Part shown: positions 1 to 8,927 of the stretch, piece after piece | Position numbering within the stretch: position 1 is the stretch's first letter | Layout of the letters: the number at the start of each line of letters is the position of its first letter | Origin: a virus | Lineage: Duplodnaviria > Caudoviricetes | Direction: 5' to 3' (one strand) | IMG/VR virus record: IMGVR_UViG_3300032223_002716 | Location: 1 to 58,033 of that record | Length of the DNA stretch: 58,033 bases | Position numbers and translations under genes: made by a program | Notes under the pieces: model-generated | Databases searched by the model: none | What the model was told of the DNA's origin: nothing | What the model saw: only the letters and a program-made list of their open reading frames with translations

Positions 1-409
1 AAACATGTTAAATGCTAATTTATTGGCTGAATCAAGATACCTTGAATCAAAAGGATTGATTAAGGAAGGTGAAGATTTTGGGACTGGTGAAAACTTTGGT
101 CGTGAAAGTGCTGCGCAAGAGTATGCAATGAAATCTGGTGAAAATATGTATAATGGCCAACCAGATTTAAACAAGGAGATTAACGCTAGTGAAGATAATT
201 TAAACGACCCTTTATTTAGTCATGGTGTTCATTTTAAATCGGAGTACGCAATGAAAGGTATACCTAGACCTACAATTATAATTCCATTTGCTATAGAAGG
301 TCAAAAAACGATATGGTATAGACATAAGGATGATAAAAAGAAAAAGGAACATACAATGTCATTAGATATGTTTTTAAATTATTATGAATTAAAGTCTAAA
401 TATAAGTAA
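1..409 (+). CDS. Hypothetical protein, probably 5'-truncated; putative virion cargo
   Basis: N-terminal NANLLAESRYLESK matches KANILAEQRYLESK of ORF 42344..42955. Confidence 0.7.
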   Translation, partial: NMLNANLLAESRYLESKGLIKEGEDFGTGENFGRESAAQEYAMKSGENMYNGQPDLNKEINASEDNLNDPLFSHGVHFKSEYAMKGIPRPTIIIPFAIEGQKTIWYRHKDDKKKKEHTMSLDMFLNYYELKSKYK

Positions 410-963: not shown

Positions 964-1445
964 CATTTTAGATAATTAGCCCATGACTTATCGTATGCGC
1001 TGCTTTGTTTGATAAGGAACACATATGAAGGTTCAAATGGTTTATATTTCATACCCATGTTTGCTTCTTCTGGTGTTCTATTATCTTTTTTTGAGTTACA
1101 TTTTTTACAGCAAGTAGCCATATTCTGCCAAGTATTTTTCCCACCTCTTGATGATGGTAATACATGGTCAATGGTTAAATTGGTTGTACTTCCGCAATAT
1201 ATACATTCGTAGTTATCTCTAATGAATACATTTTTCCTATTGAAATAACTTTTTCTATATTTGAATGGTGTATAATTGATAAGTCTAATAACGCTAGGTC
1301 GTTTATAACTAGAATTTTCGGTAACAATTGGAATTGGTACTTCTTCTAATATTTCGGCCTTACCTAGATAAACAAGATTAAATCCTCTTACGAGGGTTGT
1401 GATGTTTATTGGTTGGTATAAGCTATTTAATACTAGCACTGACAT
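963..1445 (-). CDS. HNH endonuclease (McrA-like)
   Basis: VLVLN..YQP, RDNYECIYCG, TIDHVLPSSRGG, CCKKCNSKK. Confidence 0.9.
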   Translation of the reverse strand: MSVLVLNSLYQPINITTLVRGFNLVYLGKAEILEEVPIPIVTENSSYKRPSVIRLINYTPFKYRKSYFNRKNVFIRDNYECIYCGSTTNLTIDHVLPSSRGGKNTWQNMATCCKKCNSKKDNRTPEEANMGMKYKPFEPSYVFLIKQSSAYDKSWANYLK

Positions 1446-1880: not shown

Positions 1881-2926
1881 AGTGCGTTTATTTTTTCTAA
1901 AATTTCTTCGTTGTTATACTTCCCATTTATTGATTTAGCAAAGAATACTTTATCGGTAGTCATACCTTCAGTTAATTCAGCTAGTTCAACATCACCTTCT
2001 AATATATCCAAACGTTTTGCAAAGTTAGGTCCAGTAATTTCTCTAACATACTTCATTCTGGAAGGTCTTTCTTTAATGGCTGTATCAACCTTCTCAATAT
2101 CATTACAAGTCATAAAGAATGCTACTTGATTATATTCATTATAAACACCGTCTAACACGCTTAAAATAACGTCATACGTGAACTTAACTTCATTGTTCTT
2201 CATAATACATTCTCGTTTATCGAAATAATTATCAAAGTCTTCGAATAATACGATACATTTCTTTGGTATATCACTAAACATGAATAGAATATCTAGGTTA
2301 TTGTATTCTGGGTTAAGGTAGATTGAATAGATTGGTAAATCATACTTTAATGAAAAGTATTTAATTAATCTAGTCTTTCCAGTACCAGGTAACCCATATA
2401 ACAATGCGCTAGTTTTACCTTTTCCGTTTAATAACATTTCTACAATATCTCTTTCAATATCTTCGTATTGGTCATCGTTTATGAATACTTTAGGTTCTTC
2501 TAATTTACTTAGTTCACCTAATTTATCGCTACCCCATGGAGTTAATGCCATTACGTTAACATGTTCTTCAGATTTAGCTTTAGACCTTACAAATGCTTCC
2601 ACTTTTTTTCTTTGCCATCTTAGGTAATATATTTCGGATAGCACTTCTTTTGATTGCCAACCAGTTGTTAGTAATCGTTCAGACTTACTGAAGAACATGA
2701 ATATTCCATCGATAAAAACAAATGATGAATAAGTTGCTGGATATTTTTTATTAACACTTATTTCATTATTGATTTCAAACTTATGTTTAGCTTGTATTAA
2801 ATATGGTAAAATGTTTTTACTAAGATTATCATCTAATCTCATATGTTGACTAACTAAATACCTCATCGTGGCCCATACTGATACTAATACACTACCAATA
2901 ACTCCGATTAATCCCCATACTCCCAT
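1877..2926 (-). CDS. Membrane-anchored AAA+ ATPase (BCS1-like)
   Basis: N-terminal TM helix; Walker A GLPGTGKT; Walker B VLFEDFD; RPSR arginine finger. Confidence 0.85.
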   Translation of the reverse strand: MGVWGLIGVIGSVLVSVWATMRYLVSQHMRLDDNLSKNILPYLIQAKHKFEINNEISVNKKYPATYSSFVFIDGIFMFFSKSERLLTTGWQSKEVLSEIYYLRWQRKKVEAFVRSKAKSEEHVNVMALTPWGSDKLGELSKLEEPKVFINDDQYEDIERDIVEMLLNGKGKTSALLYGLPGTGKTRLIKYFSLKYDLPIYSIYLNPEYNNLDILFMFSDIPKKCIVLFEDFDNYFDKRECIMKNNEVKFTYDVILSVLDGVYNEYNQVAFFMTCNDIEKVDTAIKERPSRMKYVREITGPNFAKRLDILEGDVELAELTEGMTTDKVFFAKSINGKYNNEEILEKINAL

Positions 2927-3108
2927 TACATTCTAGATTTTACATGTTCAACACTCTGGATTAATTTATCATCAGCATCATTTAATGATACTACTATTTT
3001 ACCATCACCGTTATAATCCCATCTAACAATGAATTCTTTTAAAACTATACCACCTGATTTTGGTCCATCAGAACATTCGGTATTATTATGTACTTGAAAT
3101 TCGCTCAT
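2926..3108 (-). CDS. Hypothetical protein
   Basis: ORF in tightly packed operon. Confidence 0.55.
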   Translation of the reverse strand: MSEFQVHNNTECSDGPKSGGIVLKEFIVRWDYNGDGKIVVSLNDADDKLIQSVEHVKSRM

Positions 3109-3924: not shown

Positions 3925-4452
3925 TTAATTATCAAACCAAAATACTATTCTTACATCATCTAAGTCACCCAATGTTTTTAGGTCTTCGATATGTTGAAAA
4001 AACATTCCAGATAAAAAATCATTAATAGGTAATACTTCACCTTCACCTTCTTCAGCTAATGCTGCACCATTCCAAACATTTGGGCTAGTTTGTTTTGTAA
4101 CTCTTCTATTCCAGAATTTTTGAGTATAATCAAACTCAGCAAGTTCTCTTAGATAGATATGTGATGGTGTATGGGCATCCCAACCCCAATAATCATATTC
4201 AGACTTCACAGTATCTGATATATCTTCTGGAATACCTCTAGGTTCAACTATTGGGTCAATGCAACTATAGTTTCTAACGCCAGCTAGAAATCCATACATA
4301 CCATAACCTCTCCAATCAAATGGATGGTCACCTTTCTCACGATTAAGATAATTTTTATCAAAATCATCCAATGTGGTAAAATCAAATACTTGTTCCCATT
4401 TACCAGTTTCTTTATTTCTTACTTCAGCATAAGAATGTATATCACAACCCAT
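3925..4452 (-). CDS. Conserved phage protein (MGCDIH...RIVFWFDN family)
   Basis: Characteristic terminal motifs. Confidence 0.75.
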   Translation of the reverse strand: MGCDIHSYAEVRNKETGKWEQVFDFTTLDDFDKNYLNREKGDHPFDWRGYGMYGFLAGVRNYSCIDPIVEPRGIPEDISDTVKSEYDYWGWDAHTPSHIYLRELAEFDYTQKFWNRRVTKQTSPNVWNGAALAEEGEGEVLPINDFLSGMFFQHIEDLKTLGDLDDVRIVFWFDN

Positions 4453-4457
4453 AATTA

Positions 4458-4625
4458 TTAGTTTTTAAAGTTATCGTATCTGTACCAAAACAACATTGCG
4501 AGTAATTCTAAGGAAAAGAAGTGACCAACAGTTATTTTTGATTCATTCCAATTCCAAATGATATAAATCAATAGTGATAATGATAATATCATTTCAATTA
4601 ACGTAATATGTTTTTTATTTTTCAT
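4458..4625 (-). CDS. Small membrane protein (55 aa; not in ORF track)
   Basis: MKNKKHITLIEMILSLSLLIYIIW...; directly after TATATTTG promoter at 4630-4637. Confidence 0.55.
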   Translation of the reverse strand: MKNKKHITLIEMILSLSLLIYIIWNWNESKITVGHFFSLELLAMLFWYRYDNFKN

Positions 4626-4689
4626 ATTGCAAATATAGTCATAAAAAATACATTACGCAAGGTTTATTATTTTTTTGTATAAAAAAATT

Positions 4690-5298: not shown

Positions 5299-5988
5299 TT
5301 AATTATTTTTTAAATTAAAGGTTAAACCTAAAGTTAAAGTATGCATTAAGGTAACATTACTGATATTCCTATAATTTATATTATCAGATATTGTAATATT
5401 GAATTTTTTATTTTGTAGGAATATTAATTTGGTACTACCGTATACAATTACATCGTTAAATAATCGCATATTTGGTTGGTAATAATATTCTGAGTTTAAA
5501 TTAAAATGTTTATGTTCATATTTTAATTTAAATCTAACTGAATGTCTAATAACTTCTTTGTGGGGTGAGTCATTATAATTTGTATTTTGGTACAATGCTG
5601 CATAACTTAATGATGTGTATTTCCATCGTTTACCAATACCAATACCGAATGAATTATCATCATTAATATTCCTTGTTAATGAGTGGTTAAATACGTGTAT
5701 TAGGAATAGATTCTTATAACTAACATTTGTTTTTTGTTGCCATTCATTAGCAATTATTTTGGTACTATATATTAATGAATAAGCGGTATTAGTATTAAAG
5801 GTTAAATCTTTTTTTGTAAGAGTATTATCACCAGAATATGTAATATTAAATTGAGTAGTACTATTCTTAGAATACATACCAGTGATACTATTTCCAGATG
5901 ATACTGAAATAGAATCAAATAGTAATGTATCTTGACCATAACTAAATAAAGTTACGATAATAAAAATAAGTGTTAGTATTTTTTTCAT
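5299..5988 (-). CDS. Putative outer-membrane beta-barrel (DUF481-like) with signal peptide
   Basis: MKKILTLIFIIVTLFSYG signal; alternating beta strands; C-terminal LTLGLTF. Confidence 0.6.
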   Translation of the reverse strand: MKKILTLIFIIVTLFSYGQDTLLFDSISVSSGNSITGMYSKNSTTQFNITYSGDNTLTKKDLTFNTNTAYSLIYSTKIIANEWQQKTNVSYKNLFLIHVFNHSLTRNINDDNSFGIGIGKRWKYTSLSYAALYQNTNYNDSPHKEVIRHSVRFKLKYEHKHFNLNSEYYYQPNMRLFNDVIVYGSTKLIFLQNKKFNITISDNINYRNISNVTLMHTLTLGLTFNLKNN

Positions 5989-5992
5989 ATTA

Positions 5993-6199
5993 TTAATGTG
6001 TTCCATTTGTTAGGCTAACTCCATGTTTAAACCCAGTTATAAATGTATCTATTTCTTCTTGATTCATGTTAGGTATAATATTACCTAATATATGACCAAT
6101 CTCATTACCAATATCAGATAAATCACCTTGATAAGTAACGGTAGTTAGACGTGCCGATATTTCAGTCAGCACGTCATTAAAATTTAAGTCTCTTTCCAT
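5993..6199 (-). CDS. Hypothetical protein (likely start MERDLNF)
   Basis: Start lies just after the thyA-C stop. Confidence 0.6.
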   Translation of the reverse strand: MERDLNFNDVLTEISARLTTVTYQGDLSDIGNEIGHILGNIIPNMNQEEIDTFITGFKHGVSLTNGTH

Positions 6200-6200
6200 A

Positions 6201-6977
6201 TTAATTCGACAATGGGGCCTTAATAGTTGGATGTGATTGATAATTGATAATCTCAAAATCAGTAATCTGCATATTATTAATAAGAACATCGATATCACTG
6301 TGTAAAGGACCAACACCACATTCTCCAGATTCTGTAGGCCAGAACTCAGTGTTGATGTTTAATGTTGGTAATGTGAAAGGTTCTCTAGTTCGTTTTGGGA
6401 TTAAATCGTTTAATTTTAATAACCCTTCCTTAGTCACTTTACCATCTTCTCCAATATATGATTTGGTAATAAAAATTGTTTGAGAATTCATTATATCAAT
6501 GCGTTCTCCTAGACTTAACTCTCTACCAATTTGTTCTTTTGCTTGTTCAATATGGTTTGAATACAAATGTACATCACCTAAGTTACCAATTAATTCATCT
6601 GGAACCATATTAACTTCTTTAGCAATGATTTCCAATAACAATCCATAAGAAGCAATATTGAATGGTAAACCTAAGAATGTATCTACACTTCGTTGATTCC
6701 ACATCAGTGAGATTGCTCTGGTTGGTATGTTTCTTGTTGTTAGCTTAGCATCTTCAAACCCAGCTGGTTTACCAACTCCACCCATATATTGATTAACGTA
6801 TATTTGAATTCTTTCTTCTTTACTCAACTCTCTTGTATAAACTTGAAATCCATAATGGCAAGGTGGAAGTACTTGTTTACCTTCAGTTATATCTTTTCTA
6901 CCATATTTTTTATAAAATTCTTTATCTGTTTTTAATTTCTCTAAAAACTCTTCTTTTGTTAATTTTTTAGTTTCCAT
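6201..6977 (-). CDS. thyA: Thymidylate synthase, C-terminal half
   Basis: LPPCH catalytic Cys, QRSVDTFLGLPFNIASY, GDVHLYSNH, YQSHPTIKAPLSN. Confidence 0.9.
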   Translation of the reverse strand: METKKLTKEEFLEKLKTDKEFYKKYGRKDITEGKQVLPPCHYGFQVYTRELSKEERIQIYVNQYMGGVGKPAGFEDAKLTTRNIPTRAISLMWNQRSVDTFLGLPFNIASYGLLLEIIAKEVNMVPDELIGNLGDVHLYSNHIEQAKEQIGRELSLGERIDIMNSQTIFITKSYIGEDGKVTKEGLLKLNDLIPKRTREPFTLPTLNINTEFWPTESGECGVGPLHSDIDVLINNMQITDFEIINYQSHPTIKAPLSN

Positions 6978-7221
6978 AACTATTCATTTTTTCTAATAAA
7001 TTATTCATCGCTTCCATAATGGTCTTACCTACACCATATAGGCACGGGTCAACTTCTCTTTCTAACCAATCATTTAATTCATAACAAACTTCTTCAGTAT
7101 TTATTGATTGCACAAACCTAGAATCTTCTTCAGCGTTAAACGCAATATACCCACCAAAACGTAAATTAACTAAGGTTAGTGGATAAATTTCTTCCCATTC
7201 TTTATAAACTCTTTTATTCAT
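6967..7221 (-). CDS. Hypothetical protein inserted between the thyA halves
   Basis: 84-aa ORF whose start and stop overlap both thyA fragments. Confidence 0.7.
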
Positions 7222-7903
7222 AACTCCAATTTTTAAAATAATCATTATAAAGTTCATCATCCGTTCGATAATCGGTAATCGGTAAATCGGCTGGATTCCA
7301 AGCTGAAACCATCAAACGTCTTGAGTCTGGATTTGTTTTAAGGTCGTTGATTAGGTTTGCTATTTGGTCTATTTTATATTCTTTGAAAAATAAACCTCTA
7401 CCTCCTAATAATGGGTCTTCAATATTATCTGTATTTAAAAATGCGTCTCTATCTATACCACCCCAACTTCTCCACTGTGCCCCATATACTGGACCTAAAT
7501 CACCCCACTTCTTAGCAAACTCATCATCTGTTTTGATGCGATTGATGAATTCTTCTTGTGTTAATGTCGGTAACTTAATTGATGTAGGTCCAAATCCATC
7601 ATATTCTGAAGTTTCGGTACTATTCCAATATCTCTTATAGCAATCTCCATTCCAAATATTACAATCATTTTCGACTAATGATTTGATATTCGTTTCTCCT
7701 CTTAAGAACCATAACAACTCAGTAATAATTCCTTTTGTATACATTTTCTTTGTTGTAATAAGAGGAAAGCCTTCTGACATCTTATGGCGAATCTGTCTAC
7801 CAAATACTGATATAGTTCCAGTACCAGTCCTATCGGACTTAGCATGGCCATTATCTAATATATCTTGTAGTAATTCTGTGTATTGTTTATCTAAATTATT
7901 CAT
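7214..7903 (-). CDS. thyA: Thymidylate synthase, N-terminal half
   Basis: [46 protein letters not shown]. Confidence 0.9.
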
Positions 7904-8208
7904 AATACATTTTTTTTACCTAATACATACATTATTCTTCTAGTTAATGTACCAGCAGTTTTGGTACCATCATTACACCAATGCATAATAATAGTCTCGA
8001 TATCTGAATAAATCTCTTTATTAGCTTCAGATAAGTTATTAACTCTTATTTCAGGGAACTCACAATCACAATAAGCTTGGAACAATCCACATTCACCATG
8101 ATATGGACCATATAGTTCTTCATTTTTCTTATTGATTCTTATTATAACTTTATGTGCTGGATTGTTCTCATCCAAGTTTGCGTATAAATCTTTCATATTA
8201 TTTTTCAA
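7900..8208 (-). CDS. Hypothetical protein
   Basis: ORF in operon. Confidence 0.65.
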
Positions 8209-8464
8209 TTATGGTTTTTACACCGTATATAGTTATTTTTCTATCTTGGTAGTCAACTAGTTTGATTATTTTAACACCTCTTACCATTTTAAATGATTTA
8301 GCATGGTATTTAGTACCATTAGCATCAATAATAGTATATTTACATTTATTCATTAAATCTATTTCTTGTTTTAAAGGCCAGAATGGTAAGATACATAATC
8401 CTAATACAAGTATAGCACCTAGTATACCACCTACAATATTTAATGTCGAATCTCTATTTTTCAT
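8198..8464 (-). CDS. Hypothetical membrane-anchored protein
   Basis: N-terminal TM helix. Confidence 0.65.
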   Translation of the reverse strand: MKNRDSTLNIVGGILGAILVLGLCILPFWPLKQEIDLMNKCKYTIIDANGTKYHAKSFKMVRGVKIIKLVDYQDRKITIYGVKTIIEK

Positions 8465-8927
8465 TTGTAAATAAATAATTTAAAATTTGGTTAGCGTATT
8501 CAAGACATGCATTGATGTCGTTTTTGGTTAGTTCTGGAAAGTCATCCATAATCTCTTTGTGAGACATTCCATTACTTAAATAGGATAGAACATCCATCAC
8601 ACTAATTCTAGTGTCTCTAACGCAAGGTTTACCACCTTTTTTACCCTTTGTAATTGTAATTAAATCTTTATAATTATAAGTTTTAATTGTGATTGGTGTT
8701 TTATTAGCTTCATGGTAAAGGTCCCATTCGATAATACAATTTTTTTCCATATCAGTAAGTATTGATAATACGTTTTTATATAGTAATTGTTTTTGACTTG
8801 TAGGGTTATCAAATAATATTTGATTTACATGTAAGATGCTACAATTAATAGCCATCTTTTTATTTAAACCAATATCAGCACATTTAGTCAGCAACTTATT
8901 TACTATTTTTTCTGCTTTATTTTCCAT
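8454..8927 (-). CDS. DUF433 domain protein (C-terminal)
   Basis: KKGGKPCVRDTRISVMDVL..GMS..EIMDDFPEL. Confidence 0.8.
   Translation of the reverse strand: MENKAEKIVNKLLTKCADIGLNKKMAINCSILHVNQILFDNPTSQKQLLYKNVLSILTDMEKNCIIEWDLYHEANKTPITIKTYNYKDLITITKGKKGGKPCVRDTRISVMDVLSYLSNGMSHKEIMDDFPELTKNDINACLEYANQILNYLFTNEK

Follow-up and report, generated by a model that had tools for sequence, protein, structure and literature searches.

A thymidylate synthase gene of a T4-like phage split beside its active site by a homing-endonuclease cassette that has since lost its endonuclease

How can a phage thymidylate synthase gene (thyA) serve its owner when it is broken just ahead of the catalytic cysteine and an unrelated open reading frame (ORF) lies in the break? 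The question is raised by a 58,033-base IMG/VR viral record, IMGVR_UViG_3300032223_002716 (Duplodnaviria; Caudoviricetes), which is taken over its whole length and is called the window below; its completeness is rated 22%. Among the window's genes are those of a T4-like portal, a large terminase and a prohead protease, and its source is an uncultured, T4-like phage. Our answer, to which we give a probability of roughly 0.78, is that a homing endonuclease made the split, that the endonuclease gene was later deleted in the window, and that the two halves most likely work as a non-covalent two-chain ThyA of the genes-in-pieces kind.

Three abutting genes were found on the minus strand, each in a different frame. 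The upstream gene, thyA-N (7214..7903, minus), encodes 229 amino acids (aa), namely ThyA residues 1-208 (to SAWNPADLP) followed by a 21-aa tail and a stop codon. The downstream gene, thyA-C (6201..6977, minus), encodes 258 aa, beginning with a 33-aa leader and continuing as ThyA from KQVLPPCH, with the catalytic Cys40, to the C-terminus. Between them lies an ORF of 84 aa (6967..7221, minus; ATG at 7221, stop at 6967-6969); a 97-aa form of it starting at 7260 is an upstream extension not common to relatives. Both halves exceeded the curated cut-off of Pfam PF00303 (24.3 bits) and together spanned profile positions 1-266: thyA-N matched positions 1-139 (E 6e-53, 180 bits) and thyA-C positions about 130-266 (E 8e-33, 114 bits). 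The nearest solved relatives of thyA-N are thymidylate synthases (TS) of the Enterococcus and L. casei type, with a small domain. In place of the single polypeptide of a ThyA homodimer, the locus thus holds two ORFs in different frames with a third between them. The sequence-only reading of this locus had described thyA as split into two genes around an unrelated ORF, and every detail that was checked, from coordinates and strand to motifs, was correct. The stop/start overlaps that it reported are both present, ATGAATAA (7214-7221) between thyA-N and the 84-aa ORF and ATGGAAACTAA (6967-6977) between that ORF and thyA-C, and translational coupling through them is plausible.

The break lies between Pro208 (..NPADLP) and Lys (KQVLPPCH), seven residues ahead of the catalytic cysteine. 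When the two halves were compared with the ThyA of Flavobacterium phage immuto, which is uninterrupted at 423 aa (AWNVGELDQMVLPPCH), and with Enterococcus ThyA (NPEDVPSMALPPCH), core residues were neither lost nor duplicated. What remains of the inserted cassette occupies 6879..7279 (minus), a net insertion of 401 nucleotides (nt). The gene is uninterrupted in relatives: 26 distinct intact thyA genes were found among the loci from a scan of viral contigs with the C-half, and contigs from the metagenome runs that also contain the endonuclease-bearing form carry uninterrupted alleles of relatives as DNA, with position 6866 joined to 7295 and 24-30 other nt (about 27) in place of 6867-7294. Three imperfect GATT(T)ACC units cover the last core and first tail codons at the upstream junction (7262-7287, minus; GATTTACCGATTACCGATTATCG); such units are present in the window and in two related loci, L006 and L007, and are less regular in other split genes.

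The C-half scan (best 80 of 586 confirmed) also supplied split relatives, and thyA-N, the middle ORF and thyA-C were then searched against all loci by tblastn. Many relatives carry an N-half with a tail and a C-half with a leader, 170-1200 nt apart, and the ORFs in these gaps are homing endonucleases. As judged with a degenerate DNA pattern, the leader motif KEEFLxKLKT occurs at 41 viral loci and is in frame in 40; the in-frame motif always stands 7-42 residues from the preceding stop and starts a downstream thyA piece, never lying inside an intact gene. All loci merged, there are 33 distinct leader-bearing C-pieces. Eighteen are broken at the window's site (the window and 17 other distinct viral contigs, counting a hybrid truncated gene, L113, and a diverged ThyA-like gene, L125), 14 at a second site after WRNWGG and before IDQI, and the last, L121, is a 37-aa remnant. 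At the window's break, the gap holds a GIY-YIG endonuclease in nine cases, an HNH endonuclease in four (one broken) and none in five, the window included; an endonuclease is thus present in 13 of the 17 other contigs. At the second break there are 12 HNH genes, one gap without an endonuclease and one cut by the contig end. These classes were assigned by motif, and since Pfam recovered NUMOD3 and I-TevI_DNA-bd in the three gap endonucleases submitted to it and GIY-YIG or HNH near cut-off only, the nuclease class rests partly on motifs. The tail has its own motif. At each of the 37 viral loci (31 distinct) where it was found, it stands 2-15 residues ahead of the stop that closes a ThyA N-piece or fragment, and no other protein among these loci carries it, so that the tail/leader pair is specific to thyA. 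The split with different inserts that the sequence-only reading suggested looking for therefore exists, with GIY-YIG, HNH or no endonuclease in the 17 other contigs. That reading was right that both halves are extended by new stretches, which it put at about 25-35 aa and which measure 21 and 33 aa. It missed that they are not peculiar to this gene: as a conserved pair they move along with the cassette and are met again at other breaks. The split it described is real, but it also missed the free-standing homing-endonuclease cassette, now deleted, from which the split arose.

The loss of the endonuclease can be read from the tail of thyA-N (7217..7279, minus). The endonuclease ORF of relatives has ...KNKNFKNWSYE as its C-terminus, and its stop codon runs into the ATG that opens the 84-aa ORF. 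As shown by DNA alignment, the window's tail is identical to that of L007 up to GATTATTT and thereafter to the 3' end of the L007 endonuclease gene, an ORF at 2157-3008 of that locus, so that it ends in the last seven residues of the endonuclease ORF. The scar occupies 7217..7240 (minus), the tail being the end of the lost ORF (FKNWSYE and stop) from about 7232-7240, and the junction sits in a microhomology or short repeat, ATTT(T/A)AAA. Global alignment of the window with L007 placed an 892-nt gap after 7240. Two metagenome contigs from other samples, X2 record 14 and X6 record 29 (both 1548 nt), carry 884 extra nt between 7239 and 7232 and are otherwise about 98% identical to the window (6-7 differences in each aligned piece), which shows that endonuclease-bearing and endonuclease-free forms occur side by side in nature. 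The window represents the derived form, with the endonuclease deleted, and a similar, independent deletion scar was found in L027.

The cassette also appears to move between thyA genes. Identity between the window and L007 was 95-100% over 7270-6871 and 88-95% for about 200 nt upstream, against only 0.6-0.8 in the rest of the N-half and 0.5-0.7 right after the leader, and it never rose above 0.95 in the C-half. Recent gene conversion of the cassette and its upstream flank into a diverged thyA would give this pattern. The 84-aa ORF differed from its counterpart in the same L007 contig at 4 of 252 nt (proportion of synonymous differences, pS, 0.02), compared with pS 0.47-0.49 for the thyA halves. 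In relatives this ORF sits directly after the endonuclease gene; it was 96% identical in L006-L008 and 77% identical in L009, where it lies away from thyA and where the ratio of nonsynonymous to synonymous divergence (dN/dS) was 0.19. No Pfam family was found for it, one weak match (E 0.0037) was to a PHROG family of unknown function, protein atlas matches were viral hypothetical clusters only, and tblastn of the 97-aa form against records of cultured phages returned nothing. The 84-aa ORF does not belong to the enzyme; it is variable cargo next to where the endonuclease once lay. A sigma-70 promoter and terminator scan of 5900-8600 gave no terminator and promoter-like sites below shuffle expectation, which is uninformative for a probable Bacteroidota host.

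Taken together, these observations suggest the following course. A free-standing homing-endonuclease cassette inserted into phage thyA beside the active site, supplying an acidic tail and stop codon for the upstream piece, an endonuclease gene with optional small cargo ORFs, and a start codon with a basic helical leader for the downstream piece. In the window, about 890 nt lying between two short, similar sequences were later deleted: the endonuclease gene was lost, the tail became fused to the last seven endonuclease codons, and the cargo ORF stayed. Most likely, the two thyA pieces are transcribed together, separately translated by way of the stop/start overlaps and reassembled non-covalently as an active (N.C)2 thymidylate synthase. 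Both chains would be made and bound to each other, with the tail and leader probably acting as interaction peptides, a clasp that holds the halves together. The leader, and perhaps the tail, may derive from thyA sequence flanking an older insertion site in the small-domain loop.

Constraint on the added ends and the adjacent core was measured over 15 split genes that are broken at the window's site; L015 was left out as the start-codon pattern missed it, and L113 and L125 were dropped as aberrant. From pairwise Nei-Gojobori sums, dN/dS was 0.069 for the first 16 tail codons, 0.104 for 27 leader codons, and 0.105 both for the 30 core codons before the break and for the 17 after it, and dS across tail, leader and adjacent core was 0.77-1.06. 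Most changes were at third codon positions, 518 of 810 for the tail and 765 of 1324 for the leader. The figures argue that both added ends are translated and that purifying selection acts on them as strongly as on the catalytic core (dN/dS 0.07-0.10). The tail, with pI 4.1 in the window, is predicted to be helical over residues 215-226, and nine of its residues are invariant (T210, D211, D215, D216, E217, L218, Y219, D221 and Y222). The leader (6879..6977, minus; pI 9.0), with predicted helices at 8-17, 19-25 and 27-31, is invariant at nineteen positions ahead of K34. In 15 of 15 genes an acidic tail (pI 4.1-4.5) goes with a basic leader (pI 8.1-9.6); this 21-aa and 33-aa pair, conserved and oppositely charged, is the kind of unique tail found on genes in pieces.

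The halves themselves are also under purifying selection. Over the whole halves, the window gave dN 0.15-0.45 and dS 0.73-2.2 against each of 14 relatives. Catalytic residues were invariant in the 15 split genes, R25, R195, R196 and Y140 in thyA-N and C40, H41, Q95, R96, S97, D99, H137, Y139 and N141 in thyA-C, which confirms the earlier statement that both halves keep their conserved motifs. We take these to include the catalytic Cys in PCH, the phosphate-binding arginines, the NQRSxD motif and the Asn of HLYSNH.

The structure prediction that the sequence-only reading had proposed was run for the N+C complex, using 15-row alignments. The interface score (ipSAE) was 0.85, compared with 0.39 for the best of three controls; that mark was attained in 116 of 157 cases for solved complexes and in 2 of 215 for mismatched pairs. 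Runs shared at least 95% of contacts, partner confidence (predicted local distance difference test, pLDDT) was at least 83, and 313 contacts were predicted. Folded alone, the N-half had a mean pLDDT of 53.7 and was confident only in the small domain (residues 70-140), and the C-half had a mean of 69.9 with the strand of the catalytic Cys (29-41) below 50. The tail and the leader both fall in the predicted inter-chain interface: the confident part includes residues 206-211, 213, 215-216, 218-219, 221-223 and 225-226 of thyA-N and residues 5-6, 8, 11-12, 15, 19, 23 and 25-39 of thyA-C, among them the hydrophobic faces of both predicted helices (L218, Y219, Y222, F223 and W226; L6, F11, L12 and L15). 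The native N-half helix (114-134) lies outside it. Direct contact between tail and leader may be supposed from this arrangement. With purifying selection, invariant catalytic residues, the lack of intron or intein signatures and a predicted complex that passes its controls, a functional two-chain ThyA, as first put forward from the sequence, is the best reading of the locus; helix swapping, then named as a possible mode of assembly, is conjecture.

Several points weigh against it. The predicted complex may pass by likeness to solved TS structures rather than by real binding, and the prediction places tail and leader in the interface without stating mutual contact. The pairs behind the dN/dS values are not phylogenetically independent. 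The window's tail ends YFKNWSYE, compared with a family consensus of YLK(N/D)(F/I)E, a departure that is due to the deletion. The record being 22% complete, another thymidylate synthase may be encoded elsewhere in the phage. Finally, some lineages hold decayed pieces (the 37-aa remnant in L121; truncated genes with a broken HNH in L113/L178), so the split gene is not always kept.

The halves could also work without any help from their new ends, the normal ThyA core alone bringing them together and the tail and leader being mere passengers dragged along with the endonuclease. The tails of the split NrdA of Aeromonas phage Aeh1 are described as dispensable for the a/b heterodimer and needed only for higher assembly, in the part of that study dealing with them (PMC3045599), most of the 313 predicted contacts here are core contacts, and the 95-100% identity of the cassette between the window and L007 means that its conservation partly reflects recent transfer. 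However, across the 15 diverged genes tail and leader show dS like the core (0.78-1.06) and yet keep low dN/dS, many invariant residues and opposite charge, and they are retained in five endonuclease-free genes at the window's break and one at the second. We regard passenger ends as unlikely.

That the insertion inactivated thyA, leaving fragments to decay or to serve another role, is a quite improbable alternative to the two-chain enzyme. Decayed derivatives do exist elsewhere (L121, L113/L178, and ORFs made of ThyA fragments in L009, L060 and L067), and the phage genome is incomplete. Against this, the frames in the window are intact, the DRTG arginine, SRR pair, PCH cysteine, NQRSxD and HLYSNH asparagine are invariant, and dN/dS is well below 1 in comparison with each of the 14 relatives. 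Moreover, a 322-kb contig with a completeness rating of 100% contains no ThyX and no ThyA match other than the split gene.

Phage thyA is a classic host of group I introns with GIY-YIG endonucleases, the T4 td intron with I-TevI and the Bacillus thy introns being examples in which the host gene is thymidylate synthase. A self-splicing intron, td-like or other, would be removed from the mRNA and let a single-chain ThyA be made, and excising 6879-7279 would indeed yield a perfectly normal protein. The likeness extends to the endonucleases of relatives, with their GIY-YIG, NUMOD3 and I-TevI DNA-binding domain. Rfam, which spans described ribozymes only, nevertheless gave no RNA family for 5800-8300 at E <= 10 except one chance miRNA match, and no intron in nine related split loci at E <= 1; the covariance-model ribozyme core of a td-type group I intron was thus found neither in the window nor in those nine loci. 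The insert RNA folded no better than shuffled sequences (z 0.18), and no RNA run was among the sequencing runs found to contain the stretch. ORFs cover the whole insert. Unlike in the td and thy cases, the endonuclease is flanked by translated sequence under protein-level selection, with tail and leader evolving as coding sequence and the leader copying a ThyA helix at the protein level, and the insertion site differs from that of td, which we take to lie between FLG and LPFN. Splicing at the RNA level is highly improbable for this locus; at the level of sequence, the break carries no splicing element, as expected of genes in pieces.

A split intein made of tail and leader, ligating the halves by protein trans-splicing, has next to no probability: a genuine LAGLIDADG intein does sit three residues away at the catalytic Cys in L036, and degenerate inteins were raised as a possible origin of tails by Crona et al. 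in the portion of their paper on tail origin (PMC3045599), but the tail starts with I or V after DLP, not Cys/Ser, the leader ends EG before Lys, with no His-Asn and no Cys/Ser/Thr at +1, the 54 aa of tail plus leader are far below any intein, and neither half matched Hint or Intein Pfam families. The L036 gene (1363-3681) encodes a 772-aa ThyA with the intein in frame (Intein_splicing and LAGLIDADG_3) exactly at the catalytic Cys (..LPP, then CFTSD...VNHN, then CHYG), three residues downstream of the window's break. Active-site inteins and the cassette therefore target the same conserved stretch, and the window differs in having stops and frame changes and in lacking a Hint domain and splice-junction residues.

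Where did the clasp of the proposed two-chain enzyme come from? The leader helix is paralogous to residues 114-134 of the N-half, the small-domain helix, of which it is a copy; by eye, 13 of 21 residues are identical. When a hidden Markov model (HMM) of the leader helix, built from 24 split genes, was run on 26 uninterrupted phage ThyAs, it matched the native helix of the small domain in 23, with an independent E-value (i-E) <= 1e-5 in 15. Both results uphold the earlier claim that the thyA-C leader copies a helix inside thyA-N. A third break site gives a possible source. It lies in the variable loop just before the small-domain helix, and the downstream piece there starts M..DLHESGRPYTQEEFINKIK... 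and runs into native sequence. The motif HE.G.P[FY][ST][KQ]EEF was found at 22 viral loci, in 19 distinct pieces and always at the start of the downstream piece, of which five are broken at the loop site, 13 at the second break and one (L131) at the window's break; it was not found in the intact genes examined. The simplest reading of these sequences is that the leader represents the N-terminus of a loop-site downstream piece, carried along as the cassette moved within thyA.

The tail is harder to trace. A tail HMM gave no significant match in the 26 intact ThyAs, the best being a trivial TDDE inside the other helix. In an ungapped profile scan, the WDGDAYKNYL position scored best in eight of the 26 intact genes and two of three loop-split genes, and was among the top three in 19 of 26 and three of three, respectively; scores for two further segments of ThyA, LDKQYTDLLQDI and GDVHLYSNHIEQA, were similar. 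The scan is suggestive of a tail copied from the ThyA helix upstream of the small-domain loop (WDGDAYKNYL), without establishing it. We tentatively propose, at something short of an even chance, that the cassette is a self-contained split-and-clasp module: the leader, and probably the tail, would have been copied from the arms of the ThyA small-domain helical hairpin when an endonuclease first sat in the loop between them, and their opposite charges would then pair in trans.

Genes broken at the loop site form a third class of split thyA (L041, L044, L063, L136, L145, L148 and L149), with GIY-YIG-type endonucleases of a different kind (NUMOD1, I-HmuI-like) and a single, native copy of the helix. 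One contig, containing both L186 and L128, has thyA in three pieces of 109, 65 and 246 aa on the reverse strand (1377-1706, 2445-2642 and 3939-4679). A GIY-YIG-type gene lies in the first gap (small-domain loop) and an HNH gene in the second (after WRNWNGK), and the middle piece has the loop-site leader plus the conserved tail. L125 (2131-2718, 2777-3481 and 3483-4031) is a diverged ThyA-family gene (..ALHPCHHEIQF..), possibly a hydroxymethylase-type relative, that is split by an HNH gene and has the same leader on its downstream piece. Small tandem ORFs of ThyA fragments were seen in L009 (2025-2522, 2515-2844), L060 (1099-1677, 1670-2035), L067 (1591-2088) and L178 (2406-2642, 4481-4768). 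They contain the small-domain helix, ERELSLEER and IPTRxISL without the catalytic core, end ..SYE/K and have overlapping starts; no Pfam or PHROG family was found for them, and they look like decayed or re-used split-thyA pieces. Among cultured phages, tblastn of C-half residues 1-60 against 50,697 phage records matched only residues 34-60, with no leader.

Elsewhere in the window, a free-standing HNH endonuclease gene (HNH_5, E 3e-17) lies at 966-1445 (minus), so the phage still carries other homing-type nucleases. The window also has cargo unusual for a phage (35638-38145, 39527-41771 and 10383-12077): an 836-aa ClpB-like double-AAA chaperone, a response regulator next to a GAF-PAS histidine kinase, and a nicotinamide/nicotinate phosphoribosyltransferase.

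The closest known parallel to the split thyA is the nrdA gene of Aeh1, which was fragmented into nrdA-a and nrdA-b by mobE (Friedrich et al. 2007, as cited in PMC2988022). According to the section on the tails in Crona et al. 2010 (PMC3045599), these arose with the insertion and are essential for activity. As far as the accounts of Aeh1 go, both cases go back to a free-standing homing endonuclease inserted beside active-site residues of an enzyme of nucleotide metabolism; both have two pieces that are translated apart, with neither RNA nor protein splicing (judged here from sequence), and C- and N-terminal tails, unique and of opposite charge, that the insertion brought with it. Unlike in Aeh1 as described there, the host gene is thyA and the polarity is reversed, with an acidic tail and a basic leader; the pair accompanies GIY-YIG or HNH endonucleases or stands without one, and it is found again at a second break site and in a diverged ThyA-like gene; a helix of the enzyme itself is recognisably what the leader copies; and the endonuclease is gone in the window, where assembly into an active ThyA is a prediction. 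Other phage enzymes fragmented by transposition-like events of endonucleases, as surveyed in the relevant part of PMC2988022, are the T4 topoisomerase gp39/gp60, split by mobA, and the split gene 43 of Aeromonas phages; tail-like extensions were noted for gp39 and gp60 in a passage of PMC3045599. These are different enzymes from ThyA, and in those passages no sequence relation is reported between their tails and the host protein, nor are the tails described from more than one site. In the full-text literature, subscription-only papers being outside its coverage, no description of an endonuclease-split ThyA was found.

Homing endonucleases are believed to persist in essential genes by being hidden in introns or inteins. 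Aeh1 NrdA showed a third route, tails that reassemble the pieces, and in thyA this route appears as recurrent, mobile and apparently modular in a second enzyme, with two nuclease families. Split thyA comes with natural controls, in the form of intact alleles, forms with and without the endonuclease, two- and three-piece genes and an intein at a neighbouring codon; with these, the question of Crona et al. whether tails are a general antidote to gene fragmentation becomes directly testable. The tail and leader offer a small natural peptide pair for protein-fragment complementation, and their recognition explains paired 'partial' thyA calls in the annotation of phage metagenomes. If the cassette is indeed a split-and-clasp module, the element could colonise different surface loops of ThyA, even two per gene, without killing the enzyme, which would stay fragmented but working after the endonuclease is lost, as in the window.

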